A DNA stretch of 64,000 bases from Spirochaetia bacterium (GTDB lineage: Bacteria > Spirochaetota > Spirochaetia > SZUA-6 > Bin103). The position numbers and the translations under genes are program-made. The stretch lies in the NCBI GenBank assembly GCA_965203055.1, contig OZ241863.1, positions 2,185,313 through 2,249,312 on the forward strand, written 5' to 3'. The notes beneath the pieces are model-generated. The model ran no database searches. It worked only from the letters and a program-made list of their open reading frames with translations, and was not told where the DNA came from. Numbering within the stretch: position 1 is the stretch's first letter; the number at the start of each line of letters is the position of its first letter. Of this stretch, positions 25,591 to 43,308 are shown piece after piece.

Positions 25591-25706
25591 CGCTGCCCGC
25601 AATGTTATCCGGTGTCCCGCCCTTTGACCACCGGCGCACCGCACCGGGCGCATTTCCGAGGCTTGACGCCCCGAGTAGCGCGCGGCTACGGTCGCCGCGG
25701 GTCGCA

Positions 25707-26750: not shown

Positions 26751-26974
26751 GTCCGCCCGGTACCGGACGTCAGGTACCGCACTTGCTTGGACGTTCCGTC
26801 CCGATCCCGAGGGACCGCACCGGCCGCGCCGGCGTCCGCGGCGACCGTGTTCCGTCCCGCGGCGCCATGGCCTGACCCACGGCGGCTGCCGTATCCATCT
26901 CTCGGTGGGCCAAGAAGATAGCGGCGGGCGCCCGGTGTTGGTAACGGCGCGCCGTCGTGGTACACTACGTGTAG

Positions 26975-29392
26975 ATGACCAAGGATCACGTCATGCGGAT
27001 GGACACGATAGGCGACGAAATCGCACAGATCCCGGTCTCCATCAACTACGACATCATCAGCCTGTTCTCCGAGGGGTTGTACAAGAGTCCGCACAAGGCC
27101 GTAGAGGAACTCGTAAGCAACTCCTATGACGCCGAGGCAGGGCGAGTCCACGTACTGTTGCCGGAAGCGGGAGACGGGACAGGCCCGCGCGATCCGCTGT
27201 GGGTAATCGACGACGGTCACGGGATGAACGAGGATGGATTTCGGCAGCTCTGGCGAGTTGCCGATTCTACCAAGAACCTACCTTCAGCACCGGGCAAAAG
27301 AGCCCCGATCGGACAATTCGGAATTGGTAAGCTGGCGTCCTACGTCCTCGCCTGGGAATTGACCCACATCAGCTGCGTAGCTGGCCGTCTGTTGTTGACC
27401 GTCATGGACTTTCACAAGTGTACCGGGCGGCGACAATATGATAACGCAAGTCCAGTCGAGATCACGTTGCGCGATGTGGATGAGGCAACGGCTCGGTCTC
27501 ACCTGCACGAGATCGCCAAGCGAGACCCGTCTGCGTGGGACATGATGTTCGGCAAGAACCGATCTTCGAGTTGGACCGCCGCCGGCTTGTCCGATTTCAA
27601 GGAGCTGTACAGCAAGCTGGTAGCCGGTACGCTGCGTTGGGTCCTGAGCACGGGACTTCCACTTCACTCGGACTTCGAGGTGCGCCTGAACGGAGACCGG
27701 GTTACGTCGAGCAAGGAAGCCAGGAATCCAATCAAGCGTATCGAGATCAACGACAGCCTGCCTGGTATTGGAAAAATAGAGGGCGCTGCGAGCATCTGGG
27801 GAAATCAATTGACTACTGGCAAATCGGAACAATTTGGCCGTAGTCATGGTTTCTTCGTGCGCGTCCGCAGGCGTGTCATCAACCTGGAAGATGAATTGTT
27901 CGGTATCGAGGCCGTCAACCACGCTGCTTGGTCCCGATTCGCTCTGGTGGTTCATGCCGAAGGGTTGCGTGACTACCTGCTCTCCTCACGCGAAGGAGTC
28001 CGAGATTGCGACCATATTCAGGCGTTTCGCGAGTTCCTCTTGAAGAAATTCAACGATTGTAGATCAGCCTATGAAGAGTGGGATCGTCGCACGAATGAAC
28101 CACTGGAAATGACCTCTCTGTCGGATGGCCATAGTATTCATATCACAGAACCGTTGGTGCGAAGCGTGCGCAACACCGTAGAAGCGGGTGAAGATTCCTT
28201 CTACATCGAAGTTCCGAGTAATGTGGACATAGATGGGCGTCATAAGTGGCTTGATAAGTACGAGAACGAGGTCTCGGAAAGACCGATAGACAAGAGAATC
28301 TTCGAGCGCCAAGGGCCGAATGCCCCCGCACTGCGCTATGATCCAGGCTTGCGCCGTCTGGTCGTGAATCTCGACCATCCGTTCGTCGATAAACTCACGG
28401 CGGGCGGAAAGCGCCGGAATCCGGCCAAGCTCTTCGCGGCGTCCGAAGTCTTCCTGGAAGGACAACTCCAGGTACAGGGCGTTTCCCCGCTTACCATCAA
28501 CAATTTTCTACGGGACCGGGACCGGATATTGAGGTTGACGGCCGGCGATGCTCCTCCTACAGCCGCGGAGGTGGTGCGTCGTCTGGCCGCCGCCCGTAAT
28601 GACTCTCTCGATCTCGAACGGGCGGTCGGTGCGGTCTTCCGTTTACTGGGTTTCGAGTACGAACGGAAGGGGGGGAACAAATCGGGGCCGGACGGGATAT
28701 TATATGCCCGTCTTGGGCGCCGCAAACGTGAGTCGGCAAACTTCAGCGTCGTTTACGACGCGAAGCAGACCAACCATCCGTCAGTACCGGCCGACAAGCT
28801 AGACTTTGCCAGTCTCGAAGACTTCAGAACGCAAGAACATGCCGATTATGGCTTCTTCATCGCCAACGCCTATGCAGCGGAGATGGCGCCCGATGGGGCA
28901 CTCAATCGACGGATTTCACAGGTCGGTGAGAGCCTTACGTTGCTCAAGGTCGAGCATCTACAACGGTTGGTATGGCTGCATTATCACCAGGGAATAACGC
29001 TCACCGTACTTCGTACCCTGTTCGAGAGGGCGCGCACGGTGCCAGATGTGAACTCCTGGATCGATGATCTGAAGAAGACACTGGATGAGCAAGGGGAGGT
29101 TCCGGTGCGAGTTCTTCTCGAAGGCCTCGAACGGGAGAGGAAGGACGACAATAAGGCTATTCCGAACATCGTTGCCGTTCGAGCAAAGCTCCAGTTATTG
29201 CAGCAGTTCGAGCCGGAACGCCTCATCGCGCGATTGAAAGCAGCGGAAAATATCATTGGCAACCGCTGGATCGAGGTAGATGATTCCGGTGAAGTCATCA
29301 TGCACCACACCGCGGAGCAGATCCTCTCGGAGCTGGAGCGTAACATTGCCGGTCTCATGCCCGAGGCGGAACAGATTCCCGAGACGACCTGA
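26975..29392 (+). CDS. MORC-like GHKL ATPase fused to a C-terminal Mrr-like PD-(D/E)xK endonuclease-like domain
   Basis: 805 aa. GHKL N-box ELVSNSYDAEA, G1 box VIDDGHGM, G2 box GQFGIGKLASYV. Near residues 560-610: ...AVFRLLGFEYERKGGNKSGPDGILYA...ANFSVVYDAKQT... (D...D-x-K) resembles the Mrr catalytic-domain pattern. Codon usage and GC are lower than in flanking core genes. Confidence 0.7.
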   Translation: MTKDHVMRMDTIGDEIAQIPVSINYDIISLFSEGLYKSPHKAVEELVSNSYDAEAGRVHVLLPEAGDGTGPRDPLWVIDDGHGMNEDGFRQLWRVADSTKNLPSAPGKRAPIGQFGIGKLASYVLAWELTHISCVAGRLLLTVMDFHKCTGRRQYDNASPVEITLRDVDEATARSHLHEIAKRDPSAWDMMFGKNRSSSWTAAGLSDFKELYSKLVAGTLRWVLSTGLPLHSDFEVRLNGDRVTSSKEARNPIKRIEINDSLPGIGKIEGAASIWGNQLTTGKSEQFGRSHGFFVRVRRRVINLEDELFGIEAVNHAAWSRFALVVHAEGLRDYLLSSREGVRDCDHIQAFREFLLKKFNDCRSAYEEWDRRTNEPLEMTSLSDGHSIHITEPLVRSVRNTVEAGEDSFYIEVPSNVDIDGRHKWLDKYENEVSERPIDKRIFERQGPNAPALRYDPGLRRLVVNLDHPFVDKLTAGGKRRNPAKLFAASEVFLEGQLQVQGVSPLTINNFLRDRDRILRLTAGDAPPTAAEVVRRLAAARNDSLDLERAVGAVFRLLGFEYERKGGNKSGPDGILYARLGRRKRESANFSVVYDAKQTNHPSVPADKLDFASLEDFRTQEHADYGFFIANAYAAEMAPDGALNRRISQVGESLTLLKVEHLQRLVWLHYHQGITLTVLRTLFERARTVPDVNSWIDDLKKTLDEQGEVPVRVLLEGLERERKDDNKAIPNIVAVRAKLQLLQQFEPERLIARLKAAENIIGNRWIEVDDSGEVIMHHTAEQILSELERNIAGLMPEAEQIPETT

Positions 29393-30561
29393 TGGCGCTG
29401 CTATCGATCCATCCGTTTCCCGCTCGCATGGCCCCGGAACTGGCCAGTCGTTCGATTGAAGCCGTGCCGGACGGTGGACTGGTGCTCGATCCGATGTGCG
29501 GCTCCGGCACCGTCGCCCGCGCCGCGGTGGAGGAAGGGCTGCGGTGCGTTGGCACCGATGTCGATCCATTGGCGGTCCTGATGGCAAGGGCATGGACTAC
29601 CCCGGTGGAACCTGAGGAGATTCGGAATGATGCGGAGCGGATCATACGGGAAGCCGGGAAGCTTGAAGATCTAGAGGTCGAACGGACGGCGGATGCGGAG
29701 ACAAGGGAATTCATCTCCTACTGGTTCGCGCCGCGACAGGAGTCGGCGCTGGCGCGCATCGCAACCGTGCTGCGGCGTTGGCAACGTCCGACAAGGGACG
29801 CACTGGCGGTCGCCGTGAGTCGGATCATCGTATCCAAGGAACGGATGGCGTCTCTGGCTCGTGACACCTCTCATAGTCGGCCCCACAAGGTTGCCGACTC
29901 CAATGACTTTGACGTCCCTTCCGGCTTTCTGCGCTCCGCCCGGTACGTGGCCGCACGGCTCGCACCGGATCGAATAACGGGGCAGGCCGATATTCGCCAA
30001 GCCGACGCGCGGCTACTCGACGGGGTCGACGACGCGAGCATCGACCTCGTGCTTACCTCGCCGCCGTACCTCAATGCCATAGACTACCTGCGCGGCCACC
30101 GGCTGGCTCTCGTCTGGTTGGGTCACGAATTGAGACCGCTGAGGGAAATCCGGGCGAACAGCGTCGGAGCGGAGCGCGTGATACCGGCGACCGATACGAA
30201 TCGCGACGTTCGGCGTTTCGTGGGAAATGTCGAATGGTCGAACATTGCTGCTCGGCATCTCGGCTGGATACGGCGTTACGCATCCGACATGGACGCGGTA
30301 CTCCGTCAGATCGTGCGCGTCATCAAGCGGACCGGCCAAGTGGTTCTGGTGCTTGGCAATTCGTTCCTCCGCGGGGCGACCATCGACAACGCGCGGCTCA
30401 TCAAGGAACTTGCCGAAAACGTCGGATTACGTCTCCAGGGCCAACACGTGCGGGAGATCCCTGCTCGGCGACGGTATCTTCCTCCGCCCGGTGTTGGTGA
30501 CGGCTCGCTCGACTCTCGCATGCGCCAGGAGACCGTCCTTACGTTCGCGTCCGATGCATGA
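29392..30561 (+). CDS. Site-specific DNA methyltransferase (amino-MTase, motif I before motif IV: alpha-class-like)
   Basis: Motif I LVLDPMCGSGTVARAA near the N-terminus and motif IV LVLTSPPYLNAIDY about 200 aa later. The start ATG overlaps the GHKL gene stop (TGATG). Confidence 0.75.
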   Translation: MALLSIHPFPARMAPELASRSIEAVPDGGLVLDPMCGSGTVARAAVEEGLRCVGTDVDPLAVLMARAWTTPVEPEEIRNDAERIIREAGKLEDLEVERTADAETREFISYWFAPRQESALARIATVLRRWQRPTRDALAVAVSRIIVSKERMASLARDTSHSRPHKVADSNDFDVPSGFLRSARYVAARLAPDRITGQADIRQADARLLDGVDDASIDLVLTSPPYLNAIDYLRGHRLALVWLGHELRPLREIRANSVGAERVIPATDTNRDVRRFVGNVEWSNIAARHLGWIRRYASDMDAVLRQIVRVIKRTGQVVLVLGNSFLRGATIDNARLIKELAENVGLRLQGQHVREIPARRRYLPPPGVGDGSLDSRMRQETVLTFASDA

Positions 30562-30648
30562 TAGACTACCCCCTCACTGCCCATGGTCAGCGTGCCGCCG
30601 GCGCCACTGCCAAGGTGCAGATGATCTACGTGAACCCGCTCTGCGGAA

Positions 30649-31623
30649 ATGGAGAATATGGACTACTTCAGTGATCGCGAGCGCCCGCCGCCACCACCAA
30701 CGATTACAGAATTTACGAACGCCTCCTGGCGGGGCGTCGCTGCCGCTATCGACACTCGGATTAGAGACGGATCGTTTGGTGCACGTTACCCCGAAATTTG
30801 TCAAGATGGACCATATCCATATGGCACTGATATAGACTCTTTTTGGTGCGCTTTAGCAGGTGATATACCGGAACTCAGTGAACGATGCGAGCGGTTCACA
30901 GAGACCGAACAACCTTCGTTGTTCGCAGCCATGGACTTGATTGAATTCTGCTGGCGTGCCGTAGGCAAACCTCAGAAGACATGGTATCATAAATTCTTTG
31001 ATCACCATCATCTGAAATTCGACGAGGACGCAGGAAAGAGTGAGTTTCGTGAAGATATAAATAGAATATTCCGTCGCAACGGAATGGCATATGAGTTAAC
31101 GACGAATGGAATCGTTGAACGGTTGGTGCCGGAGCAGATTTCGGCGATGGTTCATACGGAATACCGCACGAGTGACAGCGATCTGGACAGGATGCTCGAT
31201 AGTGCTCGTAGAAAATATCTGAGTCCTAACGATGACGAACGCCGTGATTCGCTCCAGTTCTTATGGGACGCATGGGAACGGATCAAAACGATAGACGGTC
31301 CCGACAAGAAATCGGGTGTAAAGAGTCTTCTTGATCAGGCTGCGGGGACGAGTGCATCGAAATTTCGCGCTACTTTGGAAGAGGAGGCAAAGAAATTGAC
31401 GTCGATCGGCAATAGTTTTCAGATACGACACTCGGAGACGAATCAGGAGCGTCTTGACTCCCCGCAGCACGTCGACTATGTCGCCTGCAGGATGTTTTCG
31501 TTCATCTACCTAATTCTTCGGCGTTTTCGTAGTGTTCCGGCGGGTCAATCGTATCATGACAACGGCGATGAAGAAGCCAGCGCTCTCCGCGCGGCTGCAG
31601 CCGATGACGCACTTCCGTTTTGA
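30649..31623 (+). CDS. Hypothetical protein (island gene between the GHKL–MTase pair and Type III mod)
   Basis: 324 aa, non-repetitive composition, lower GC; no motif I can name with confidence (an R-x(n)-H stretch, RRFRSVPAGQSYH, near the C-terminus is only suggestive of a HEPN-like fold). The 3' end overlaps the mod start by 4 nt. Confidence 0.5.
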   Translation: MENMDYFSDRERPPPPPTITEFTNASWRGVAAAIDTRIRDGSFGARYPEICQDGPYPYGTDIDSFWCALAGDIPELSERCERFTETEQPSLFAAMDLIEFCWRAVGKPQKTWYHKFFDHHHLKFDEDAGKSEFREDINRIFRRNGMAYELTTNGIVERLVPEQISAMVHTEYRTSDSDLDRMLDSARRKYLSPNDDERRDSLQFLWDAWERIKTIDGPDKKSGVKSLLDQAAGTSASKFRATLEEEAKKLTSIGNSFQIRHSETNQERLDSPQHVDYVACRMFSFIYLILRRFRSVPAGQSYHDNGDEEASALRAAAADDALPF

Positions 31624-34600
31624 GTATGCGGGACAAGAGAACACCGAAACCGGGGGCCGCCGATAGCGTTAGGTCGATCACGTATCCGGCGAAGCGGAAG
31701 AACATTCCGCCGGCGGGGTTGGAGGCGCAAGGGGTGGTTCGGGAGACGCCGACGGTGCGGTACGACTACAACCCGCATCTGCCGCCGGCGTTGCGCTCCG
31801 CGCCGGACGCCGCGGTCGAGGACCGGCTGCCGGAGTTGCTGGCGGCGGCGCGGCGGCGGGCGCTCTCCGAAGAAGAGGCGGCGCTGCTGGCAGCCGCGCT
31901 GCGCCGGCATGAGCCGTGGCTGGAGTGGAGCGGCAAGCGGGAGCGTCCGTGGTTCGAGGTCGATCCGGTGGCGCTGCACATGCACGAACGGGTCTCCACG
32001 CAGGCGATCCTGCGCGTGCTCAAGCGGCAGGACGCGCAGCGCGACCTGTTCGCCGATCCGCAACTCGACTACGCCCGGGCGGTGCAGTTCTACCGGCACG
32101 ACGTGGATTGGGCGAACCGGATGATCCTCGGCGACTCGCTGCAGGTGATGGCAAGCCTCGCCCGCCGCGAGGACTTGGCCGGCAAGGTGCAGATGATCTA
32201 CGTCGACCCGCCCTACGGGATCAGGTTCGCCTCCAACTTCCAGCCGCAGCTCGGCCAGCGCGACGTCAAGGACCGCCGGCAGGACCTGACCCGCGAGCCG
32301 GAGATGGTCAAGGCGTACCGCGACACCTGGACGCTGGGCGTCCACTCCTACCTGGCCTACCTGCGCGACCGGCTGGCGATGGCGCGCGAGCTGCTCACCG
32401 CCACCGGCAGCATCTTCGTCCAGATCAATGACGAGAATCTTCATCGTGTACGCTCTGTTATGGATGAAATCTACGGAGCGGATAACTTCATCGCGATCAT
32501 AGCATTCAAGAAGACAAGTGGACTGGGGACTTTCGGCGTCGGAAGCGTCTTGGACTTTCTACTCTGGTACGGTAAGGATAAGCAGCAGACAAAGACTAGA
32601 GACCTGCTCGAGGACAAGAATCCTGGCACCTCCGGAAGATTCTACGATCATGTGTTGTTTCCTACAGGGGAACTTAGGCGATTCTCAACATCTGAGAAAG
32701 ATAGCATAGGAGAGGAAGATGGAAAATTGTTACAGGGGAGTGTTCTTTACTCCGAAGGGGCTACGGAAACAGGTAAATTCGAGATCCAGGTAGGACCATA
32801 CAAGTTTCGTCCACCCGCCAATGCCCATTGGAAGACAACTCAAGATGGGATGAATCGTCTCCTCAGCGCCGATCGCGTATTCCTTAAAGGAAAAACCCCT
32901 CGCTATGTCCGTTATCTCGACGATTATCGATGCTATCCACTGACAAACGTCTGGACAGATACGGGATTTGGGGGGTTCGTCGGCGATCAATCAAAGACTT
33001 ACGTGGTTCAAACTTCGTCGTTGATCGTAGCGCGATGCATGTTGATGACTACCGATCCGGGCGATTTGGTGCTCGATCCGACCTGCGGCAGCGGCACGAC
33101 GGCCTACGTCGCCGAGCAGTGGGGGCGGCGCTGGATCACCATCGACACCAGCCGGGTGGCGCTGACGTTGGCCAAGCACCGGCTGATGACCGCCCGGTTC
33201 GACTACTACCGGCTGCGGGCGCTGAGCGCGGAGGACGTGGCGCGCAACCCGAACGGCACCTGGATCGAGGGCACGGACGGCAACGGCGGGCCGAACGGCG
33301 CGCGGCTGACGCTCGATTGCCGGACGGTGCCGCACATAACGCTGCGCAGCATCGCCCGTAACACCTCGCTCGATCCGATCTTCGCCCGCCACGAACCGAT
33401 ACTGGCCCAGGCGCTCGAAGCCCTGAACCGTGCGCTCGCCGCGGTCACCGCCGAGACGCGGCGGAAGCTGGTCGAGAAGTTGATCGCCAAGCACCGCCGC
33501 GACGGCGCCAACGCGGTCACCGATGCCGACGTGCGGCGCTGGCTGCTGCCGGACACGCCGGGCGACCGGCTCCGCCCGGTCGGGGCGCGCCGGCCGCTCA
33601 AGGCGGTCACCGCGCGGCAGGCAGCCCGGTACCGCGACCGGATTCCGGCGCGGGAATGGCGCGCGTGGCAGGCGCCGTTCGACGCCGACCCGGATTGGCC
33701 GCCGCCGCTGCAGGAGGCGCTGGCCGCCTACCGCGCCGCGTGGCGCGCGAAGATGGAGGAGGTCAACGCCGGCATCGCCGCCAACGCCGACGTCGAGGAG
33801 CTGGTCGACCAGCCGGCCGTCGTCAAGGGCACCGTCCGCGTCGCCGGACCGTTCACCATGGAAGGGGTGATCGCGCTGGAGGAAGGGCCGGATTCGCCCA
33901 TCGGCGGCGCGCCGGAGGAGTTGGACGACTTCGGCGCCGAAGACGGCGCCGCGGCGGTCGCCAACGCCGAGGCGCATCTGGACAAGATGATCCGCCTGCT
34001 CAAGGCGAGCGGCGTCCAGTTCCCCGGCAACAAGCACCAGCGCTTCGAGCGGCTCGACCCGATCACCGGGCCGGCGCTGATCCACGCCGAAGGCGAGTGG
34101 CTGAACGGCGCCGGCGCGGCTCGCACCGTGGCGGTCAGCGTCGGCCCGGAGGCCGGCAACGTCACCACGTGGCAGGTCGAGGAGGTGGTGCGCGCCGCCA
34201 ACCGGGCCGGCTACGACGACGTGGTGTTCGCCGGCTTCGGCTTCGACGCCGCGGCGCAGGCCGCCATCGAGCACGCCGCGCATCCCCATCTGCGCCTGCA
34301 CATGGCGCTGATCAGCCCCGACGCGGCCATGGCCGACCTGCTCAAGACCCAGCCCGGCAGCCAGATATTCACCGTGTTCAGCGCCCCGCGCGTGGCCGGC
34401 CCCACCCGCCGGGAGGACGGCGATTACGAAGTCGAGGTAGAAGGAATGGACGTCTACGATCCGGTCTCCAACACCCTCGCCCCCACCGAATCGGCGCGCA
34501 TCGCCGCCTGGTTCCTGGACACCGACTACGACGGGCGCACCTTCTGCATCTGCCAGGCGTTCTTCCCCGACAAGAGCAAGTGGCGCCGGCTGGCCAAGGC

Positions 34601-34781
34601 GCTCGGCAGCGCCGGCGTGGTGGACAAGGCCGCCTTCGACGACCTGAGCGGCCTGCGCAGCCTGCCGTTCGCCCCGCCGCCCGACCGGCGCGTCGGCGAA
34701 CCGTGGCGCATCGCGGTCAAGGTGATCGACCCGCGCGGCAACGAGGGTCTGCGCGTGCTGACCGTCGAGGCCCCGGCATGA
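31620..34781 (+). CDS. mod: Type III restriction-modification methyltransferase (Mod; beta-class N6A/N4C MTase with long C-terminal extension)
   Basis: Motif IV MIYVDPPYGIRF (about residue 195) precedes motif I LVLDPTCGSGTTAYVA (about residue 515): beta-class order as in Type III Mod and pfam N6_N4_Mtase. 1053 aa. The high-GC antisense ORF 32991..34301 is judged spurious. Confidence 0.75.
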   Translation: MSMRDKRTPKPGAADSVRSITYPAKRKNIPPAGLEAQGVVRETPTVRYDYNPHLPPALRSAPDAAVEDRLPELLAAARRRALSEEEAALLAAALRRHEPWLEWSGKRERPWFEVDPVALHMHERVSTQAILRVLKRQDAQRDLFADPQLDYARAVQFYRHDVDWANRMILGDSLQVMASLARREDLAGKVQMIYVDPPYGIRFASNFQPQLGQRDVKDRRQDLTREPEMVKAYRDTWTLGVHSYLAYLRDRLAMARELLTATGSIFVQINDENLHRVRSVMDEIYGADNFIAIIAFKKTSGLGTFGVGSVLDFLLWYGKDKQQTKTRDLLEDKNPGTSGRFYDHVLFPTGELRRFSTSEKDSIGEEDGKLLQGSVLYSEGATETGKFEIQVGPYKFRPPANAHWKTTQDGMNRLLSADRVFLKGKTPRYVRYLDDYRCYPLTNVWTDTGFGGFVGDQSKTYVVQTSSLIVARCMLMTTDPGDLVLDPTCGSGTTAYVAEQWGRRWITIDTSRVALTLAKHRLMTARFDYYRLRALSAEDVARNPNGTWIEGTDGNGGPNGARLTLDCRTVPHITLRSIARNTSLDPIFARHEPILAQALEALNRALAAVTAETRRKLVEKLIAKHRRDGANAVTDADVRRWLLPDTPGDRLRPVGARRPLKAVTARQAARYRDRIPAREWRAWQAPFDADPDWPPPLQEALAAYRAAWRAKMEEVNAGIAANADVEELVDQPAVVKGTVRVAGPFTMEGVIALEEGPDSPIGGAPEELDDFGAEDGAAAVANAEAHLDKMIRLLKASGVQFPGNKHQRFERLDPITGPALIHAEGEWLNGAGAARTVAVSVGPEAGNVTTWQVEEVVRAANRAGYDDVVFAGFGFDAAAQAAIEHAAHPHLRLHMALISPDAAMADLLKTQPGSQIFTVFSAPRVAGPTRREDGDYEVEVEGMDVYDPVSNTLAPTESARIAAWFLDTDYDGRTFCICQAFFPDKSKWRRLAKALGSAGVVDKAAFDDLSGLRSLPFAPPPDRRVGEPWRIAVKVIDPRGNEGLRVLTVEAPA

Positions 34782-35968
34782 TCGACCGCATCGTCATCGA
34801 GAACTTCAAGAGCTTCCGCAAGGTCGATCTCTCGCTCGGCCCGATGAATCTGTTCATCGGCACCAATGCCAGCGGCAAGTCCAACTTCCTCGACGCGCTG
34901 CGCGTGCTGCAGGGGATCGGCAACGGCTTCACCATCGGCGAGATTCTCGACGGCAAACCGAGAAGCGCGACCAGCGAAGTATGGGAAGGGATTCGAGGCG
35001 GCAGCTCACTGACCTGCTTCGCCGGCAGCGATGGCAATGCGACGCTTGAGGTAAGTGGAATCACGTCAGCACGCTGGGAGTACACAATATCGTTCTCGCC
35101 GGCGCACGGACGAGTCACCCGTGAACGTCTTAGGGTGGACGGAGAAGACATTTACGACTCTATTCCGGTTAGCAACAAGAACGAAAATCCTATCCTCTCG
35201 GTACAACACTACGCGGGAACACTAGAAAGGCCGTCGATGATGGAGTTTGACAGCTCCCGGCCGGTGCTCGGACAGCTTGCCAGTAGTTTGTTCGATTTTG
35301 GCGAATTCGCCGCGCGGACTCTCGTACTCTTGGCAAACTCCCAACGGATCGACCCGTCGCCGCCGGTGTTGCAGCAGTATTCGCAAGCCCGTCACGTGCA
35401 ACGTCTTGGGGAGCACGGAGAGAACTTCGCTGCGCTCGTGCGGACGATATGTAAGGATAAGCGAAAAAAGGGCGCCTACCTGGCATGGCTCCAGGAACTT
35501 CGGCCGGACGAGGTGCAAGACGTAGGGACGTTGAGAGGTGCTGTCGGCGAGGCGTTATTCATGATCCGGGAAGGCGGCCGGGTATTCCCCGCGCCGGTGC
35601 TGAGCGACGGCACCCTGCGGTTCGCGGCGATTACCGCCGCGTTCTTTCAGCCGGCAATGCCTAAAGTCATGACGATCGAGGAGATCGAGAACGGCATCCA
35701 CCCCAGTCGCCTGAGGTTGCTCATAGAGCTGCTGCGAAGTCAGACTGAATCGGGCGCAACGCAAGTCTTCGCCACTACGCATTCTCCGACCGTACTCGAA
35801 TGGCTCGAAGAGTCCGAGCACCGGACGACGTTCCTGGCCGCCCGTGACGAGTCCACGGGCGAGTCGACGATCCGACCGGTGATCGACGTGCCCCACTTCA
35901 AGGAGGTGGTGGAGAAGTATCCGTTGGCGGACCTGCTTGCGGAAGGCTGGCTGGAAGCCGTGCTGTGA
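34778..35968 (+). CDS. AAA/ABC-type ATPase of the OLD/AbiLi/AriA-like class (AAA_15/AAA_21-like)
   Basis: From the ATG at 34778 (ATGA overlap with the mod stop): MIDRIVIENFKSFRKVDLSLGPMNLFIGTNASGKSNFLDAL (Walker A), ...VMTIEEIENGIHP (Walker B/D-loop), ...FATTHSP (H-loop). 396 aa. Confidence 0.8.
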   Translation: MIDRIVIENFKSFRKVDLSLGPMNLFIGTNASGKSNFLDALRVLQGIGNGFTIGEILDGKPRSATSEVWEGIRGGSSLTCFAGSDGNATLEVSGITSARWEYTISFSPAHGRVTRERLRVDGEDIYDSIPVSNKNENPILSVQHYAGTLERPSMMEFDSSRPVLGQLASSLFDFGEFAARTLVLLANSQRIDPSPPVLQQYSQARHVQRLGEHGENFAALVRTICKDKRKKGAYLAWLQELRPDEVQDVGTLRGAVGEALFMIREGGRVFPAPVLSDGTLRFAAITAAFFQPAMPKVMTIEEIENGIHPSRLRLLIELLRSQTESGATQVFATTHSPTVLEWLEESEHRTTFLAARDESTGESTIRPVIDVPHFKEVVEKYPLADLLAEGWLEAVL

Positions 35969-36525
35969 AGGTGCTCGTGATCGCGGAAGATCCGGTCCAC
36001 AACGGTCAAGTCCTGAAGCCGCTGGCGCAGGCGCTGCTGGCTGACGCCGGCCGGGAATCGGCTCGGGTCCAGATCATGGGGAACCCAAGGATTCGCGGCT
36101 ACGCGCATGCGCTGCGAGCCATCCGCAACGAGATCGTCGGTCGTTATCGATGGTACGACCTCTGGTTGTTCTTCCCGGATGCCGATCGTGGTAGTCGTGA
36201 TGCGATGGAGCGGCTGGAGGCCGATCTCGCAGCGCAGGGTGTCTCGCTTCTCTGTTGTCCCGCGCAGCCCGAGGTGGAGATATACGCTTGCGCAGCGTTC
36301 CGCGGCGATATGACGGAGACCTGGAACGAAGCGCGAACAAATCCTCGAATGAAGGAAGAAGTATTCCAACCGCTTCTCGATCTGCACGGTGACCAAAGAC
36401 GGCCCGACAGAGGTAGAGGGCTGATGATCAATCAGTCGTTGAGGAATCTTCCGTTGCTGTTTCAGCTGTGCCCGGAACTGAAGTGTCTGCGCGACCGGAT
36501 CGCGGCGCATCTGAGCGAACATTGA
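35965..36525 (+). CDS. Small TOPRIM-like partner protein (RloB/AbiLii/DUF4276-like)
   Basis: 186 aa. The GTG start overlaps the ATPase stop (GTGA). A conserved-Glu motif KVLVIAEDP and a DxD motif LWLFFPDADRG fit the TOPRIM catalytic pattern seen in small partners of OLD-type ATPases. Confidence 0.55.
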   Translation: MKVLVIAEDPVHNGQVLKPLAQALLADAGRESARVQIMGNPRIRGYAHALRAIRNEIVGRYRWYDLWLFFPDADRGSRDAMERLEADLAAQGVSLLCCPAQPEVEIYACAAFRGDMTETWNEARTNPRMKEEVFQPLLDLHGDQRRPDRGRGLMINQSLRNLPLLFQLCPELKCLRDRIAAHLSEH

Positions 36526-39500
36526 GCGCTTCCGATACCGATACCGATACGCAGCTTCCGCTGCAGCCGGTCGAGGAGCCGATCATCTGCTCGCCCTACG
36601 CCGAGCCGGCGGCGCACTGGCTGTACGACACCGGCACCGGCCTGCCGTCGAAGATCGAGGGGCGGCGCGAGGCCGGCTACTGGTTCAAGACCGAGCGGGC
36701 GGGGAGCGCTCAGCAGGCGCTGTTCGCGGAGGAGGAACGGGACGATCTGCCGCTGGTGAACGTGCTGCGCGCCGACGTGCGCCGCTGGCGGCGGGCCGGC
36801 TGGCCCGGCTCGTCGCCGATCACCAAGAAGCTGCTGCGCCACTGGTGGCGCGAGGACCGCTCGCGGCGGCTGTTCTTCTGCCAGCTCGAAGCGGTGGAGA
36901 CCGTCATCTACCTGCGCGAGCTGCTGGCGCGGGGCAGGAAGCCGCGCTGGACGCCGCGGCTCTCGCTGCGCGAGTTCGAGCTGCTCGGCAAGGGCCGCAA
37001 TCCCCGCCCTGAAGAGTGGGTGGCCAAGGTGGCGCAGCCGCCCAAGCTCGCCGACTTCCCGAACAGCAGCGGCGGTCGGCCGATCCCGCGCTACGCCTGC
37101 AAGATGGCGACCGGCAGCGGCAAGACCGTGGTCATGGCGATGCTCGCCGCCTGGAGCTTCTGCAACCGCGGCGCGGCGCCCGCCGACCCGCGCTTCCCGC
37201 GCCGCGCGCTGGTGGTCTGTCCCAACCTCACCATCAAGGAGCGGCTGCAGGTGCTGCGCCCGGCCGCGCCCGGCAACTACTACGAGGAGTTCGACCTGGT
37301 GCCGTCCGCGCTGCGCCCGGAGCTGGCCAAAGGCAGGGTGCTGGTCACCAACTGGCACCGGCTCAGCCCCGACTCCGAGGAGATCCGCGTCGGCACGGTG
37401 GCGGTCGGCCGGATCGGCGAGGAGACCCCGGAGGCGTTCGCCCGCAACCGCCTGGGCGACCTGTACGACGGCGAGCCGCTGCTGGTGCTCAACGACGAAG
37501 GCCACCACGCCTACCGCCCGGCGCCCGCCGCCGACGACCTGCCGGCAACCGCGCGGGCCGAGCGCGAGGCGGCCACGGTGTGGGTGGACGGACTGGACCG
37601 GATCAACGCCGCCTGCGGCATCGACGTCTGCATCGACCTGTCGGCCACGCCGTTCTACCTGCAGGGCAGCGGCTATCCCGAAGGCTCCCCGTTCCCGTGG
37701 ATCGTCAGCGACTTCAGTCTGGTCGACGCCATCGAGTGCGGCATCACGAAAATTCCGCGGCTGCCCGCGGCGGACAACACCGGGCAGCCCGACCCCAAGT
37801 ACTTCCGGCTGTGGGAACACGTCACCCGCGACCTGCGACCGGGCGAACGGTTGACTCGGGGGCGGCCGAAGCCGGAGGTGGTCTACCGCAAGGTCGAAGA
37901 CGCCCTGCTCACCCTCGCCGGCGAATGGAAGGAGCGGTTCGAGCAGGCGCAGGCGGCCGCGCCCGGCCAGGACCGCACCCCGCCGGTGATGATCGTGGTG
38001 TGCGACAACACCGCCATCGCCACCCACTTCCACCGCATGATCTCCGGCGAGGAACCGGACGCGGACCACCCGCAGCAAAAGCGCTACGGCTCCGGCATCA
38101 AGGGATTCCCCGAGCTGTGGAACGCCGCCGGCGGCCAGTACACGCTGCGCATCGACTCCAAGCTGCTCGAAGCCGCCGAGAGCGGCGATCCCGCGGCCAC
38201 CAGGAAGGACGCCGCTGAGGAGTTGCGCCGCATCGTCGCGACCATCGGCCGGCCCGGCGCGCCCGGGGCGCGCATCCGCTGCGTAATCAGCGTGAACATG
38301 CTCAGCGAAGGGTGGGACGCCAACAACGTGACCCACATCCTGGGGCTGCGCGCGTTTTCGAGTCAGTTGCTGTGCGAGCAGGTGGTCGGCCGCGGCCTGC
38401 GCCGCATGGACTACACGCCGGACCCGGAGACCGGCCTGCTCACCGCGGAGTACGTCGACATCTTCGGCGTGCCGTTCTCGCTGATCCCGTTCAAGGGCCG
38501 CGCGCCGGGCGCGCCGGCGCCGGCGGACGATTCGGCCCCCAAGCATGAGGTGACCGCGCTCCCGGAGCGGCAGGCGTTCGAGATTCGCTTCCCGGTGGTG
38601 GAAGGCTACGTCATCTCGCTGGAGCGCCACCGCGTCACCTGCGACGTCGCCCAGGTGGAGCGCACGGCGCTCGATCCGGCGAGCGTGCCGGTCGACACCT
38701 TCGTGCGGCCGCAGGTCGGCTACAAGGTCGGCGCGCCGGGCCACTACGGCGGCTTCGGATTCGAGTCCGTCGACCGGCAGCAGTACTACGCCGCGCACCA
38801 TCCGCAGACGATCGCCTTCGAGATCGCCCGCGACGTGGTGCGCCAGCTCACCGACGCGGCGGACGGCGGCAACGGCGCAGCCAACGGCAACGGCGCGGCC
38901 CGGCAGGTCGCGCGCCACGCGCTGTTCCCGCAGGCGCTGCGGATCGTGCAGGCGTATCTCCGGGAGCGCGTTGACCTGCGCGGCTGCCACCCGTGCGAGA
39001 TCGGCCTGCAGACCTACGCCGAACGGATCGCCGCGCTGCTGGCCGCCGCGATCCGGCCGCACGACTCCCAAGGGGAACGGCCGCCGCTACCGCGCTTGAA
39101 CCGCTACCAGCCGCTCGGCAGCACCGCGCGGGTCCGCTTCAAGACCGCGCGCCCGGTGCAGGCGACGCAGGCCAGCCACCTCAATTACGTGGCCTGCGAC
39201 ACCGGCAGTTGGGAGCAGGCCGCGGCGGTCCGGCTCGAACGGCTGGCCGGGCAGGGCATCGTCGAGTGCTACGCGCGCAACGACCACCTGGAGTTCACCA
39301 TCCCCTACCAGCACTACGGCGACGGCGAACCGCGCGCCTACGAGCCCGACTTCATCGTGCGGCTGACCAACGGCCTCCACGTGGTGCTGGAGATCAAGGG
39401 CCAGTCCCGCGCGGACACCGACGCCAAGCACGAAGCGGCCAAGCGCTGGGTGCGCGCCGTCAATCACTGGCGCCGACTCGGCGAGTGGCGCTTCCTGGTA

Positions 39501-39554
39501 TGCCGCGACCCGCAGACCCTCGGCCAGCACCTGACGGCAGTTCATTCACGGTAG
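36468..39554 (+). CDS. res: Type III restriction endonuclease Res subunit (SF2 helicase + C-terminal PD-(D/E)xK nuclease)
   Basis: Helicase motif I CKMATGSGKTVVMAM, motif II LVLNDEGHHAY, motif VI EQVVGRGLRRMDY; C-terminal nuclease motif ...YEPDFIVRLTNGLHVVLEIKGQ... . The start is ambiguous: the ATG at 36468 would overlap the TOPRIM gene by 58 nt; a TTG at 36521 (LSASDTDTDT...) would overlap by only 5 nt. Confidence 0.8.
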   Translation: MPGTEVSARPDRGASERTLSASDTDTDTQLPLQPVEEPIICSPYAEPAAHWLYDTGTGLPSKIEGRREAGYWFKTERAGSAQQALFAEEERDDLPLVNVLRADVRRWRRAGWPGSSPITKKLLRHWWREDRSRRLFFCQLEAVETVIYLRELLARGRKPRWTPRLSLREFELLGKGRNPRPEEWVAKVAQPPKLADFPNSSGGRPIPRYACKMATGSGKTVVMAMLAAWSFCNRGAAPADPRFPRRALVVCPNLTIKERLQVLRPAAPGNYYEEFDLVPSALRPELAKGRVLVTNWHRLSPDSEEIRVGTVAVGRIGEETPEAFARNRLGDLYDGEPLLVLNDEGHHAYRPAPAADDLPATARAEREAATVWVDGLDRINAACGIDVCIDLSATPFYLQGSGYPEGSPFPWIVSDFSLVDAIECGITKIPRLPAADNTGQPDPKYFRLWEHVTRDLRPGERLTRGRPKPEVVYRKVEDALLTLAGEWKERFEQAQAAAPGQDRTPPVMIVVCDNTAIATHFHRMISGEEPDADHPQQKRYGSGIKGFPELWNAAGGQYTLRIDSKLLEAAESGDPAATRKDAAEELRRIVATIGRPGAPGARIRCVISVNMLSEGWDANNVTHILGLRAFSSQLLCEQVVGRGLRRMDYTPDPETGLLTAEYVDIFGVPFSLIPFKGRAPGAPAPADDSAPKHEVTALPERQAFEIRFPVVEGYVISLERHRVTCDVAQVERTALDPASVPVDTFVRPQVGYKVGAPGHYGGFGFESVDRQQYYAAHHPQTIAFEIARDVVRQLTDAADGGNGAANGNGAARQVARHALFPQALRIVQAYLRERVDLRGCHPCEIGLQTYAERIAALLAAAIRPHDSQGERPPLPRLNRYQPLGSTARVRFKTARPVQATQASHLNYVACDTGSWEQAAAVRLERLAGQGIVECYARNDHLEFTIPYQHYGDGEPRAYEPDFIVRLTNGLHVVLEIKGQSRADTDAKHEAAKRWVRAVNHWRRLGEWRFLVCRDPQTLGQHLTAVHSR

Positions 39555-40196
39555 AAGACGCGCCTGAACCACGCCACGAATGCCAAGGCCGCGGCGCTGT
39601 CGTGGCCGAAGTACTTGGCTCGAATGGCCGTGCCATAGGGCACCCCGGGTCTCTCTTGCCAGGCGAGCCACGCGTGCAGGACGGCCTTGCGCCGTGCGCT
39701 GTCGGGAAAGCGTGCGCCTCGCTCCTGCGCATGTTGGGTCGAGGTATCCGCGAGCGGCAGCAGCGGGTCCTTACTCTCGACGAGGTCGCGCAAGAACTCC
39801 TCCAAGGCGCCCGACCGCTGGTTGTCCGGCATCAACCAGACGCCTACGCGCGCCTGCACCAAGCCCGCATCGCCGGCCTTCCGGGGGAATCTCGTCTGGC
39901 AGCGTCACGCCGACTGGTTTGAGTCGGCCACAAACGGCACTCCATCGATCTCCCGGGACCTCGTCGGCATCCAGTACGAACCCTATCGATCGACCGGTAC
40001 TGGCATTCACATCGGTCTGCATCCCTGCAAGCAGCCGATCTGCTCCGCCGGACGGATCCTCTTCATCACCACGGGCGTGTTTGATGCGGACCGGGATGCT
40101 CTCGCAGTCGACGCCGTGCCTCAACAGCAGATGAACGATGGCGTGAGTATCGTCATTGCCTTCGACGCGGAGGATAGACGGCTCGATTTGGGGCAC
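39542..40196 (-). pseudogene. Second TOPRIM-like partner gene, apparently frameshifted (ORFs 39771..40196 and 39542..39862 in different frames)
   Basis: The upstream ORF has ...ILRVEGNDDTHAIVHLL... (Glu) and ...SIGFVLDADEVPGD... (DxD). The two ORFs overlap by 92 nt in different frames and together are about 218 codons, the size of a single DUF4276/RloB-like protein. Either a genuine frameshift or an indel error. Confidence 0.45.
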
Positions 40197-40199
40197 CGG

Positions 40200-41282
40200 T
40201 CAGCGGAGCTCGATCTCTTGGTCGCCGGCTATTGCGATCTCTTCGCCGGCGAAGCACACGGCGCGCTCCAGCGACGGGTGCACTTTCTGTATGGAGACTT
40301 CCCCGGCGAGATCAGGCCGCGACTTCACCAGCGACCCGAGCCCTCGAATGGAGTCATAGCTGTGCGTCGTCGCGAAAACCTGCACGTCGGACTCTTTCGC
40401 CACTTGGATGAGAAGCCGCCACACGTCTTCCATGACGGTCCAGTGCAGGCCGGCATCGATCTCGTCGATCAGCAGGAATCCATGGTTCGCTCCGTGCAGG
40501 GCAAGCCGCAACGCGAGCAAGCGCCGCAAACCGTCTCCGTAACTGCCGATCGGCATCCGCCGGCCTCCTTCACGGCGTCCCACCAGGATCGTTTTGCCCC
40601 TCGTTCTGTCCCCCGTCAGGAAATAGATCGAGGCGATCTCCGGCACGAGGAGCTGCATGTCCCGCGCGATTTCGTCCTCGCGTCCCTCGGCAATCACTTC
40701 GTCCCATGCGTCGCTCATCCTGGCATCCACCAGAGAACCCATATCCAGAAAGCGGACCGGAGGTTCGGAGGAGCCGTTGCGCCGGTATCTCGGCCAGAGC
40801 TGATACAAGAGCGTACCTTCCTTGTCCACCGGCAACACGGTCGATCTCTCGGTCCCGGTGGCGATGCGCAGGCCAAATTCCGGATCGGTCTCGTCTTCTA
40901 CATCAAGCGCACGCTGCCGCGTTCGACTTCTCATTAGGTCCCAGCGTTCGGCATCTTCCCCGACGTCATCAAGCGAAAGAATCGTCGCTGATATATCGTG
41001 CTGCTCCGACTTCAACACGAAACGAGTTCCGGGTTGGCACACATGGCCGGAGAACAGATGGGAGATGTCCACTCCATACCGCAACGAGCCAGTTTCGCGC
41101 CGCCGCCGGGCGACCTCTGCGAAGGCTGAGGGCCGGCCGTTGGAGACGAGCAGCTCGACCGCTTCGAGGACGGTCGTCTTGCCGCAGTTGTTCTTGCCGA
41201 CGATCAGGTTCACCCTCGTCAAGTCAGTCAGCCGATAGGAATCGAAGCCGCGGAATCCGCGCAGCTCAAGCGTCTTCATCAT
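40200..41282 (-). CDS. Second AAA/ABC-type ATPase of the OLD/AbiLi-like class
   Basis: From the ATG at 41282 (MMKTLELRGFRGFDSYRLTDLTRVNLIVGKNNCGKTTVLEAV, Walker A), ...GFLLIDEIDAGLH (Walker B), ...VFATTHS (H-loop). The ORF's 5' extension to 41411 would overlap the DinB-like gene and is low-complexity. Confidence 0.75.
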   Translation of the reverse strand: MMKTLELRGFRGFDSYRLTDLTRVNLIVGKNNCGKTTVLEAVELLVSNGRPSAFAEVARRRRETGSLRYGVDISHLFSGHVCQPGTRFVLKSEQHDISATILSLDDVGEDAERWDLMRSRTRQRALDVEDETDPEFGLRIATGTERSTVLPVDKEGTLLYQLWPRYRRNGSSEPPVRFLDMGSLVDARMSDAWDEVIAEGREDEIARDMQLLVPEIASIYFLTGDRTRGKTILVGRREGGRRMPIGSYGDGLRRLLALRLALHGANHGFLLIDEIDAGLHWTVMEDVWRLLIQVAKESDVQVFATTHSYDSIRGLGSLVKSRPDLAGEVSIQKVHPSLERAVCFAGEEIAIAGDQEIELR

Positions 41283-41779
41283 CAGGCGCGGGCGACCCAC
41301 GCTACGCCGGTGCCGGTGGTTTGGCGGATGCGTTCGCTGAGCTGGCCGGTGTGGTGCTGGAGATGGCGCAGATTGTAGGCCAGCCGCTCCACCGGGCCGA
41401 ACGGCAGCCACGAGAAGCCCGACTCGGCGCCCAGGTCCAGCGCCGCGATCTGCCGGCGCGCGTGGCCGCGGCAGAACTCCAGGAACTCCAGGATATTCTC
41501 CCGCGTATAGGCGGCCGCCTCCTTACCGAGATCCTCGGCGCCGTCGCGGTGTCCGCTCCAGGGGCGGTGCTCCGCTACGGTCCGAAACAGGTAGAGATGC
41601 GCGTAGAACAGGGCACGGTAGGCGATGTGCCAGAACCGGTTGACCTGCTCGGCGCTGTCCCAGGCGTCATCCGGGCACGCCCGCACCGCCGCCTCCAGCA
41701 TGTTCAGGCCGGCCCGGAATTGGGCATCGAACGCGGTACGAATGGAATCTTCTGCTGCCACGGTTCGATGGTAGGCCAC
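41282..41779 (-). CDS. DinB_2/DinB-YfiT-like family protein (copy 1)
   Basis: ...FRAGLNMLEAAVRACPDDAWDSAEQVNRFWHIAYRALFYAHLYLF...HRDGAEDLGKEAAAYTRENILEFLEFCRGHARRQIAALDL...LAYNLRHLQHHTGQLSE... has the His-rich four-helix pattern of the DinB_2 family. The start is uncertain (GTG at 41779 or ATG at about 41702). Confidence 0.55.
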   Translation of the reverse strand: MAYHRTVAAEDSIRTAFDAQFRAGLNMLEAAVRACPDDAWDSAEQVNRFWHIAYRALFYAHLYLFRTVAEHRPWSGHRDGAEDLGKEAAAYTRENILEFLEFCRGHARRQIAALDLGAESGFSWLPFGPVERLAYNLRHLQHHTGQLSERIRQTTGTGVAWVARA

Positions 41780-41949: not shown

Positions 41950-43308
41950 TCAGTAGAGGCGGTCGGATACGAACGGCGTGTTGTCTCGAGCGATGCGGCC
42001 CTTGTTCACCAGCAGAGTCCGAATCGCCAGCGGCGAAACCTGAAAGTGCTCGGCGACCTCCGTCTGTCTTTCCTCCGAAATGTCGATGTCCAACATGTCG
42101 TCCACCGCATCGTATGGACACAACAGCTCGGCCGCAAACGCACGCTGCGCCTTCTGGCGGTAGCTGTGCGCCCGGGTCGCGGGCAAGAGACGTTCAACGC
42201 CGTCGACCAGCCGATCGCCGATCAACCGAGCGAGATCGAAGCGGCGGCCGGTCTCCCACTTCGGCCTGAGCGCCAAGCGCGACCGATTGCCGTCGCCGGC
42301 GATGAAAAATGACAGTTCGTCGGAGCACACCGAGATATTCTCGATGGCGCTCATGGTCGTTCCCGCAAGGTCTGCAAGGCGGGCGTTGCAGACAGGATCG
42401 GTGCCGAGATTCTCTTGACGGCGGATCGCGCGAGCAGCGTCTTCTCCGGTCTGCCAGGCCGGGTTCTCGGCCCACTCCCGGTTCTCGAAATTCAACCGAA
42501 CCGCGGCGCCGGCATTCGCATCGAAACCGCGATCGATCGAAATTTGCCGGAGCGCGGAAGCGGACGCCACGTTTGCCCCCCTGTCAAGATGGGCGGCATG
42601 GGCAGCCAACTCTTCCACCGCATTGTCACCTATTTCTTTCGCATCGTCGAGATAGCTGCTGATGGTCCGTTCGTCGATCTCGTCCGGGTCAAAGCCAAGC
42701 CGCGCTTCCAGCCGACGAAAGCGGGTGCTGTCAGGATCTGTGCGCTCCGTCCGGAGATCGTTCCAGAGTCGATGAAGATTGGTATCGTGGACGTTGGCGT
42801 TGTCGAGAATCCCCAGAACCTGACGGGCGAACCGGTCGATTTCCGCTTCCAGGTCACCGGCTGGGACGACCTCCATCCTCGCGGCTCCCAAATACCGAAA
42901 CGGCACCGCCTTGAGTTCTTGCGAAGGTTCGGCGATCACGGCGCATCGAAACCCGTCCGAAGAAATCACGACATTAGGCCACACGTAGCCTTCGCCAATC
43001 GTGGCGGTACGGTGCGCCGAGTCCCAGCGACGGAGGACGTCCCGGCCATGTTTTCCCGGAGGCCCCGGAGGACCAGGTTCCCACCGCAGGCGCCACCAGT
43101 TCCAGATCAGCCATTCGGCGAAGTGGTAGCCGGAAACCCTCGGTCCTGTGGCGTATCCTTGGACATGATCATCGAATCCCTCGGTCATGAGCCGGCCGTT
43201 CACGGTGATCTCAAGCAGACCGAACCCTGCTCTTTCTTCTTCTTGTCCGTGATCGAGCGGTTGCGGGTCGAGGCGAAAAGTCACGGTGTCCTGCTTCTGG
43301 CGAGCCAC
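41950..43308 (-). CDS. Hypothetical protein with ImmA/IrrE-like C-terminal segment (no HExxH found)
   Basis: 452 aa, non-repetitive. The C-terminus ...RAFAAELLCPYDAVDDML...VSPLAIRTLLVNKGRI resembles the conserved tail of the ImmA/IrrE (COG2856) family, but no HExxH zinc motif is visible upstream. The N-terminal 350 aa is unrecognised. Confidence 0.5.
   Translation of the reverse strand: MARQKQDTVTFRLDPQPLDHGQEEERAGFGLLEITVNGRLMTEGFDDHVQGYATGPRVSGYHFAEWLIWNWWRLRWEPGPPGPPGKHGRDVLRRWDSAHRTATIGEGYVWPNVVISSDGFRCAVIAEPSQELKAVPFRYLGAARMEVVPAGDLEAEIDRFARQVLGILDNANVHDTNLHRLWNDLRTERTDPDSTRFRRLEARLGFDPDEIDERTISSYLDDAKEIGDNAVEELAAHAAHLDRGANVASASALRQISIDRGFDANAGAAVRLNFENREWAENPAWQTGEDAARAIRRQENLGTDPVCNARLADLAGTTMSAIENISVCSDELSFFIAGDGNRSRLALRPKWETGRRFDLARLIGDRLVDGVERLLPATRAHSYRQKAQRAFAAELLCPYDAVDDMLDIDISEERQTEVAEHFQVSPLAIRTLLVNKGRIARDNTPFVSDRLY

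Follow-up and report, generated by a model that had tools for sequence, protein, structure and literature searches.

The stretch of DNA analyzed here (the window) comprises 64,000 nucleotides (nt) of contig OZ241863.1 from a Spirochaetia bacterium, and positions refer to this whole stretch. It contains a restriction-modification (R-M) locus in which the methyltransferase gene mod and the restriction gene res are separated by two other genes, coding for an ATP-binding cassette (ABC) type ATPase and for a 186 amino acid (aa) protein of an unannotated family. The same pair is found in many genomes, often without these R-M genes, and related R-M loci have either no gene or quite different genes between mod and res. 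The interpretation we favour, with a probability of about 60%, is that the pair is an autonomous ABC-ATPase/nuclease cassette, placed in a permissive cargo slot at the mod/res junction and co-expressed with the R-M genes.

Organization of the locus

All four genes are on the + strand, head to tail, in the open reading frames (ORFs) where the original prediction had placed them:

31620-34781, + strand: mod, Type III-class beta N6/N4 DNA methyltransferase, 1053 aa (alternative ATG start at 31626)
34778-35968, + strand: ABC-type (RecF/SMC/OLD-like) ATPase, 396 aa, with AAA_21, AAA_15 and PDC-M07A matches
35018-35317, + strand: variable insert of the ATPase (aa 81-180), between Walker A and the signature motif, with low column conservation
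35965-36525, + strand: 186-aa partner of an unannotated family, remotely DUF4276/RloB-like (TOPRIM-like), putative metal-dependent nuclease
36522 (or GTG 36468) to 39554, + strand: res, superfamily 2 (SF2) helicase and C-terminal PD-(D/E)xK restriction subunit, 1010 or 1028 aa

The overlapping stop and start codons that had been described were all found. The mod and ATPase genes share an ATGA at 34778-34781, within GGCATGATC, and the ATPase and partner genes share a GTGA at 35965-35968, within CTGTGAAGG. The MKVLVI start of the 186-aa protein agrees with the N-termini of its homologues. The partner gene and res overlap with either of the possible res starts, which are a GTG at 36468 (58-nt overlap) and a TTG at 36522 (TTGA, 4-nt overlap). 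The TTG appears to be the likelier start, which would give a third 4-nt overlap, because seven related loci with an embedded pair have their res start 3-12 nt past the stop of the small gene and the alignment only begins at residue ~27 of the long ORF of the window. Two other embedded loci (L009 and L046) have res starts 412 and 579 nt past the stop of the small gene, they may contain a further insertion at the same junction. Just past the likely res start, at 36534-36551, CGATAC is found three times in tandem (coding for DTDTDT); because the unit keeps the reading frame, there is no obvious phase-variation switch here. Across 26500-40500, matches resembling promoters or terminators are no commoner than shuffled sequences would lead one to expect.

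The pair has a foreign base composition, as its G+C content at third codon positions (GC3) differs from that of its flanks. GC3 is 0.94 in res and 0.93 in the C-terminal half of mod, 0.77 in the N-terminal half of mod, 0.74 in the ATPase gene, 0.68 in the partner gene and 0.51 in an AbiJ-like gene which precedes mod. The closest locus that we have found, L002, is 96-99% identical to the window in DNA over the 3' half of mod and over res. Identity is only 72-74% at 35053-35437 (ATPase residues ~92-220) and 63.5% at 36038-36237 (partner residues ~25-91). The ATPase protein is 66% identical to that of L002 inside aa 92-220 and 94% identical outside this region. The partner patch of the window is nearer to another locus, L001 (79%), than to L002 (65%). 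Such a mosaic is consistent with an exchange of alleles within the ATPase insert and the partner, and might correspond to a surface under diversifying pressure.

Locus L002 has only the C-terminal half of mod (7258-8802, residues 546-1053), upstream of the pair and of an intact res. Its homology with the window begins at 33253, the point where GC3 shifts from 0.77 to 0.93 in the window mod. The half of mod which codes for the methylase seems to be exchangeable, or to have been lost.

Distribution of the pair and contents of the mod/res junction

When one genome per species was scanned, 62 loci were found, all of them in metagenome-assembled genomes, labelled as Spirochaetia, Acidobacteriota, Gammaproteobacteria, Betaproteobacteria, Verrucomicrobiota, Binatota, Cyanobacteria and others. 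The ATPase and its partner are always found together in the 58 loci where both could be scored. The ATPase/partner junction is conserved: in the alignments the two genes are separated by 2 nt in 47 of the 56 pairs, and seven pairs have a 4-nt overlap. Most partner homologues carry two extra N-terminal residues; if these are counted, we infer that the 2-nt junctions become 4-nt overlaps.

The arrangement of the window, with mod upstream and res downstream of the pair, is present in 18 of the 58 loci. One locus has only mod, one has only res, and 39 of the 58 have no window-like mod or res. Since so many pairs lack these genes, the pair cannot depend on this R-M system. The upstream neighbours of stand-alone pairs are unrelated housekeeping genes, for example ThiF/MoaE, MacB/FtsX or amidohydrolases. 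No hidden conserved neighbour was found: the upstream ORFs, which were clustered and scanned with Pfam, only show lineage-specific housekeeping synteny, while the downstream ORFs were clustered and spot-checked, with no set-wide scan. Free-standing pairs with 28-31% identity are also found on Rathayibacter and Brasilonema plasmids. A scan of viral contigs, limited to two peptide patterns from the close family (alignment A1), found no relative. In a neighbour-joining tree of the concatenated ATPase and partner, embedded and stand-alone pairs are intermixed, therefore the association with R-M has been gained or lost several times. A more complex arrangement is found in L001 (10-13644), which has two ATPase and partner pairs, two mod and one res, in the order pair, mod, mod, pair, res.

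We have also surveyed the mod/res junction in plasmids and metagenome contigs which contain a long mod and a res of the BPTD_3080 type, the family of the window Res. Both gene orders are found. The two genes are adjacent or overlapping in Shinella, Agrobacterium pusense, Chondrocystis, Rhodococcus, L074 and L076. This agrees with the earlier statement that mod and res are normally adjacent, and the locus is now known with and without an insert. The following cases have cargo at the junction:

Thermus: DUF3800 protein
Methylomagnum: 173-aa hypothetical protein
Picosynechococcus pAQ5: UPF0175 and DUF3368 proteins (by annotation; toxin-antitoxin-like)
Sphingomonas: DUF3883 protein
L075: NERD protein
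L078: 8xMP membrane protein and trypsin-like protease
L088: DUF6978 and DUF1828 proteins
L083: M78 peptidase (confirmed) and a second ORF, PIN-like by eye only
L081: two small ORFs, a DUF433/PIN-type pair by eye only
L090: HEC-02 pair (ATPase, E = 1.6e-94; partner against HEC-02 models, 7.8e-15 and 2.6e-14)
L089: NsnB/PDC-M55A-like (Menshen-like) ATPase and a 179-aa ORF

The small ORFs of L089 and L090 do not belong to the family of the 186-aa protein, as judged with a hidden Markov model (HMM). Since other cargo is found at the same junction in related loci, the mod/res junction behaves as a cargo slot. The window pair is one of many cargos in this slot, and the junction, with at least ten cargo types, may be mined for new defence candidates.

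Some of these observations would also suit a selfish element. The pair might be an addiction-type or mobile module, kept by linkage to a selected R-M system and contributing nothing to phage defence. The foreign GC3 of the pair and the interspersion of embedded and stand-alone states are consistent with this possibility, as are the toxin-antitoxin-like cargos found in relatives (UPF0175 with DUF3368; L081 and L083 by eye, with M78 confirmed in L083) and the "genomic sink" and linkage arguments that have been proposed (10.1101/2024.01.29.577857). Nevertheless, the pair is conserved over many phyla, its catalytic-looking residues are invariant and the ATPase motifs are intact. The nearest profiles of the ATPase are all defence or defence-candidate families, other defence-type genes surround the locus, and viral contigs gave no homologue with the two close-family peptide patterns scanned. 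We consider a purely selfish role to be very unlikely.

The four proteins and their relatives

Mod contains an N6_N4_Mtase domain (Pfam, 5.5e-27). It matches the PADLOC MTase_III model PDLC03632 (5.6e-169) and Type III Mod chains of the Protein Data Bank (PDB), with values of 5.7e-18 for 6k0w and 1.2e-11 for the EcoP15I Mod. The DPPY motif is at residue 196 and the AdoMet motif DPTCGSG follows at 486; with motif IV ahead of motif I, this is a beta-class enzyme, akin to known Type III Mods. Res has a helicase domain (Pfam ResIII, 3.7e-7), the SF2 motifs GSGKT, DEGHH and QVVGR and, near the C-terminus, EPD at 941 and EIK at 957, a PD-(D/E)xK motif such as Type III restriction subunits have. Res also passes the NCBIfam equivalog for the BPTD_3080 family restriction endonuclease (917.6 bits, cut-off 800). 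Its similarity to classical Type III Res profiles is weak (PADLOC REase_III, 1.5e-11 over 43 residues), and no sequence-detectable relative is found among PDB sequences.

Judging from these profile matches, the R-M system is Type III-like, not classical Type III. It shares with EcoP15I and EcoP1I a beta-class Mod, related to that of EcoP15I, a Res with SF2 helicase motifs and a C-terminal PD-(D/E)xK motif, and the grouping of these genes in one operon. On the other hand, the window Mod is about 400 aa longer, with no known domain in the ~500 aa of its uncharacterised C-terminal half, and Res has no PDB relative and is placed by NCBI in a family of its own, "BPTD_3080". In this family the order is mod-res or res-mod, and the junction often contains cargo. 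The length of Mod (1053 aa) had been described as unusual, but it is only long when compared with classical Type III enzymes. The EcoP15I Mod chain has 644 residues, the best PADLOC model has 983 positions, and annotated plasmid Mods adjoining BPTD_3080-family Res genes have about 900-1080 aa: a size of ~1000 aa is normal in the BPTD_3080-linked family.

The ATPase matches AAA_21 (2.5e-35), AAA_15 (4.6e-20) and SMC_N (1.4e-10) in Pfam. Its motifs are intact: Walker A (GTNASGKS) at residue 28, the LSDG signature at 275, Walker B (VMTIEEIE) at 297 and the H-loop (THS) at 334. The best PADLOC match is PDC-M07A (6.3e-64), in which residues 2-393 align with profile positions 6-424 of 443. Weaker matches are HEC-01A (2.9e-40), AriA (1.3e-36), AbiLi (5.4e-27) and mad3 (2.6e-21). 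PDC-M07 is an untested PADLOC candidate (10.1101/2024.01.29.577857), and a literature search on PDC-M07, DUF3226 and BPTD_3080 returned nothing. We have not assigned the pair to the two-component PDC-M07 system: component A is matched, but component B is not, as a PADLOC search at E<=10 gave no model for the 186-aa protein. By the tests run here AbiL does not seem to fit either: AbiLi is well below the best matches and the partner has no PADLOC match. OLD and GajA chains align only to the ~45 N-terminal residues of the ATPase (6e-6 for Thermus OLD, 6p74). In 52 ATPase homologues, mean column conservation is 0.28-0.58 in aa 81-180, compared with 0.74-0.94 in the ABC motifs.

The 186-aa protein has no match in Pfam, PADLOC (E<=10) or NCBIfam models, permissive thresholds included; DUF4276 gave none even at E<=10, and DUF4435, AriB and RloB are likewise unmatched. 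It belongs to a family of 537 proteins in 90% clusters, with 508 representatives at 50% identity (E<=1e-3). The listed members mostly have about 180-215 aa, fragments aside. The window protein has the acidic motifs ED at 8, DAD at 72 and EVE at 103. Across 85 diverse members E8 and D72 are invariant, while D9, D74, E103, E105, R124, K130, G150, R151, C169 and E171 are nearly invariant. When these 85 members were scanned singly, 35 matched Pfam DUF4276 at E<=1, three matched RloB (weakly) and one matched Toprim_4. Of the 28 Pfam families matched by these relatives, DUF4435 is not one of the 25 most frequent, and the window protein has no Toprim_Old match. The DUF4276 matches of ten distant members, tabulated singly, are collinear with the 192-position model and all of them are under the gathering score; the best one has 28.2 bits (E 2.7e-6), the gathering score being 30.2. 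Membership in DUF4276 (PF14103) was rejected, because the window protein is unmatched and the ten tabulated relatives are all below the gathering cut-off; a remote sister family would agree better with these scores.

An AlphaFold2 model of the 186-aa protein (pLDDT 90.5) has strands at 2-6, 34-37, 66-69 and 95-97. In this model the acidic residues fall just after strands 1, 3 and 4, which is the TOPRIM pattern. The conserved Glu after strand 1 and the DxD after strand 3 are found when the 85-member alignment is compared with the model. Foldseek gave nothing significant against PDB, where fold searches only gave generic Rossmann-like matches; profile searches of PDB sequences with alignments A1 and A3 gave chance-level matches only. 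The top BFVD match is annotated as "RloB-like protein" (E 7.2e-3, TM-score 0.53). Both DUF4276 and RloB have been assigned to the TOPRIM superfamily (PMC12065111). The 186-aa protein is probably a remote sister of DUF4276 and a TOPRIM-like metal-dependent nuclease, as suggested by alignment and model. This unannotated family, with about 190 aa and about 500 cluster representatives, may be flagged as the probable effector of a PDC-M07A-like ATPase.

The original prediction described the inserted genes as an ATPase and TOPRIM pair. The first half of this description stands, the ATPase being an ABC-type AAA_21/AAA_15 protein with intact motifs. The second half is indirect: the 186-aa protein itself matches none of DUF4276, DUF4435 and RloB, and its link to TOPRIM is sub-threshold and transitive.

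The Mad4 protein of the MADS system is a DUF4276 protein (PMC12065111). MADS, like the window, has an ABC-type ATPase followed by a DUF4276-type small protein in a defence operon which contains a methyltransferase. The embedded pair could be a working part of the restriction machinery, as Mad3 and Mad4 are in MADS: Deletions of mad3 and mad4 lower MADS defence, and a mad3-deletion strain supplied the methylated plasmid stock in that study (bioRxiv 10.1101/2023.03.30.534895). The ATPase resembles MAD3 in part (NCBIfam, 6.7e-34; PADLOC mad3, 2.6e-21), and the four genes form one packed unit in at least six lineages. However, the MAD3 score is 117.8 bits, far under the 420-bit cut-off of the family, and the small protein is only a remote relative of DUF4276. 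The window has a conventional Res, and Mad6-8 were not found: MAD6-8, mandatory for MADS detection (10.1101/2023.03.30.534895), are absent from the PADLOC matches of nine window proteins, where only weak mad2 and mad3 appear. On the MAD3 score and these matches, the pair was not classed as MADS. The composition of the pair is unlike that of its flanks. The R-M system is complete without the pair in many genomes, and the pair also lives alone, complete without R-M. An integrated role is made less likely by the fact that each side exists complete without the other, and we find it quite improbable.

Known cases of nested defence genes provide another comparison. Payne et al. (10.1101/2024.01.29.577857), using "guilt-by-embedding", described defence genes nested in Hma, BREX, DISARM and Type I R-M, mostly ABC ATPases with TOPRIM, NERD or PIN partners. 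As in their HEC and PDC systems, the window has genes in the same orientation nested in a methylation-based system. The combination of an ABC ATPase with a small TOPRIM-like protein is that of HEC-01, and the window ATPase matches PDC-M07A (6.3e-64) and HEC-01A (2.9e-40). Related loci have HEC-02 and PDC-M55A/NsnB-like cargo at their mod/res junction, and Menshen operons have been reported beside Type III R-M (PMC12065111). The hosts are different, as the window host is a Type III-like system of the BPTD_3080 family instead of Hma, BREX, DISARM or Type I R-M. The 186-aa partner also differs in that it matches no PADLOC model, B components included.

The classic nested case is PrrC in EcoprrI, a proven guard of its host R-M (PMC12707154). 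Both prrC and the rloA-rloB genes are accessory genes for an ABC ATPase (and an RloB-type TOPRIM protein) found between the R-M subunit genes of Type I systems. In the window, by contrast, the host is Type III-like, and RloB is only weakly matched by 3 of the 85 partner-family members. PrrC is reported to be embedded almost exclusively in Type I R-M (10.1101/2024.01.29.577857), whereas the window pair is free-standing in two thirds of its loci.

PARIS and OLD also share with the window an ABC ATPase and the logic of a TOPRIM-type nuclease. The variable insert recalls IS1 of AriA, and the N-terminal region of the window ATPase is similar to Thermus OLD (6p74, 6e-6) and GajA. The partner differs from those of PARIS and OLD: it has 186 aa, no DUF4435 or Toprim_Old signal, and is a separate protein. 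AriA is not the best match of the ATPase and no trigger is known. PARIS was discarded because the 186-aa protein matches neither DUF4435 nor AriB; the ATPase does match AriA (1.3e-36), with higher scores for PDC-M07A and HEC-01A. OLD classes 1-2 were discarded because the two ORFs are separate, not fused, and there is no Toprim_Old match.

Possible function of the pair and neighbouring genes

These precedents raise the possibility of a guard. The pair would monitor Mod-Res, or sense phage anti-restriction, and would fire a suicidal or growth-arresting nuclease once restriction has been disabled. The tight translational coupling with mod and res, and the fact that 18-20 of the 58 loci have the embedded form at one and the same junction, are in favour of such a role. 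The hypervariable ATPase insert would correspond to IS1 of AriA, the predicted trigger-recognition part (PMC11464382), and PrrC (EcoprrI) and PARIS (Ocr) are precedents (PMC12707154; 10.1101/2024.01.29.577857). On the opposite side, 39 of the 58 pairs are without a window-like mod or res in their vicinity, unrelated cargo is also found at the junction, including toxin-antitoxin-like pairs, the DUF4435 of AriB is not detected, AriA is a weaker match of the ATPase than PDC-M07A, and this R-M family has no known anti-restriction trigger. A guard of this kind is, in our opinion, unlikely. The original prediction had suggested a coupled "backup" which senses Ocr-type anti-restriction. We find this suggestion unsupported, as two out of three pairs lack an R-M partner and many unrelated cargos are found at the junction; a pair hitch-hiking in a permissive slot would account for the arrangement no less well.

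A more general version would make the mod/res gap a dedicated slot, whose embedded modules are wired to the state of Res-Mod and act as PrrC-style guards for Type III restriction. We hold this to be rather improbable. If it were true, the hypervariable parts of the ATPase insert and of the partner would record an arms race with phage anti-restriction factors.

The autonomous cassette remains our preferred explanation. A two-gene defence cassette, with an ABC ATPase as sensor and a small nuclease as effector, would be lodged between mod and res, transcribed with the R-M genes and translationally coupled to them. The ATPase would act as sensor and gatekeeper: It would sense an infection cue through its variable insert (aa 81-180) and control the partner. 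The partner would be the effector, with E8/D9, D72/D74 and E103/E105 forming a TOPRIM-like metal site which cuts nucleic acid. These roles are suggested because of the analogy with the PARIS, Gabija, Septu and HEC systems (PMC11464382; 10.1101/2024.01.29.577857). Co-expression would add a second layer, mechanistically different, beside restriction, and the pair would need neither Mod nor Res.

Several points weigh against this explanation. There is no experiment showing defence by this ATPase and the 186-aa family, and HEC-01, the closest tested architecture, gave no protection in assays (10.1101/2024.01.29.577857). The nuclease assignment is remote, with all DUF4276 matches below the Pfam gathering score (28.2 vs 30.2 bits). 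Finally, one third of the pairs occupy one position within a single R-M family, in at least six phylum- or class-level groups. Such recurrence exceeds what a random sink would obviously give, and there may be a functional tie.

The new features of this locus are the BPTD_3080-type, Type III-like host, the mod/res junction as a recurrent cargo slot and the unannotated partner family. The nesting of defence genes in defence systems, described before in Type I R-M, BREX, DISARM and Hma, is thereby extended to a Type III-like R-M family that is widespread. The presence of the same cassette with and without R-M is a natural experiment, in which functional coupling may be distinguished from mere linkage.

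The four genes are part of a larger group: Seven ORFs are close-packed on the + strand from 26975 to 39554. The first three are:

26975-29392, + strand: GHKL-type ATPase, 805 aa
29392-30561, + strand: DNA methylase, 389 aa
30649-31623, + strand: AbiJ_NTD4 / PDC-S32-like gene, 324 aa (Pfam AbiJ_NTD4, 2.2e-14; PADLOC PDC-S32, 7.1e-52)

The genes for the GHKL-type ATPase (HATPase_c_3) and the N6/N4 methylase (PADLOC MTase_II, 2.3e-31) overlap by one base. They are also found directly upstream of mod in L003 and L041, which suggests a recurrent ATPase-methylase module beside this R-M system. The stop of the AbiJ_NTD4 / PDC-S32-like gene overlaps the TTG start of mod at 31620, and this gene is missing from L041, which is otherwise collinear. 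It is a probable further cargo in the same transcription unit. A related gene with AbiJ_NTD4 and DUF7014 is found just upstream of the stand-alone pair in L029 (7618-8529).

On the other side of the locus, a second ABC ATPase is coded by the - strand (39771-41411; PDC-M38A, 1.4e-62; AbiLi, 1.8e-43), followed by a 141-aa ORF (PDC-M38B, 2.4e-8) which does not belong to the 186-aa family according to the HMM. By these matches the two genes are a candidate two-gene defence system, convergent with res. A 452-aa ORF (41950-43308, - strand) has a weak M78/IrrE-like C-terminal region (Pfam, 0.0048; PADLOC RmrA, 1.6e-4) and is 96% identical to its counterpart in L002. At the left edge of the low-GC defence block, the ORF at 25302-26750 contains a run of REARREARREARRE repeats, and by eye its N-terminal half resembles PD-(D/E)xK proteins of the Rpn/transposase_31 type.

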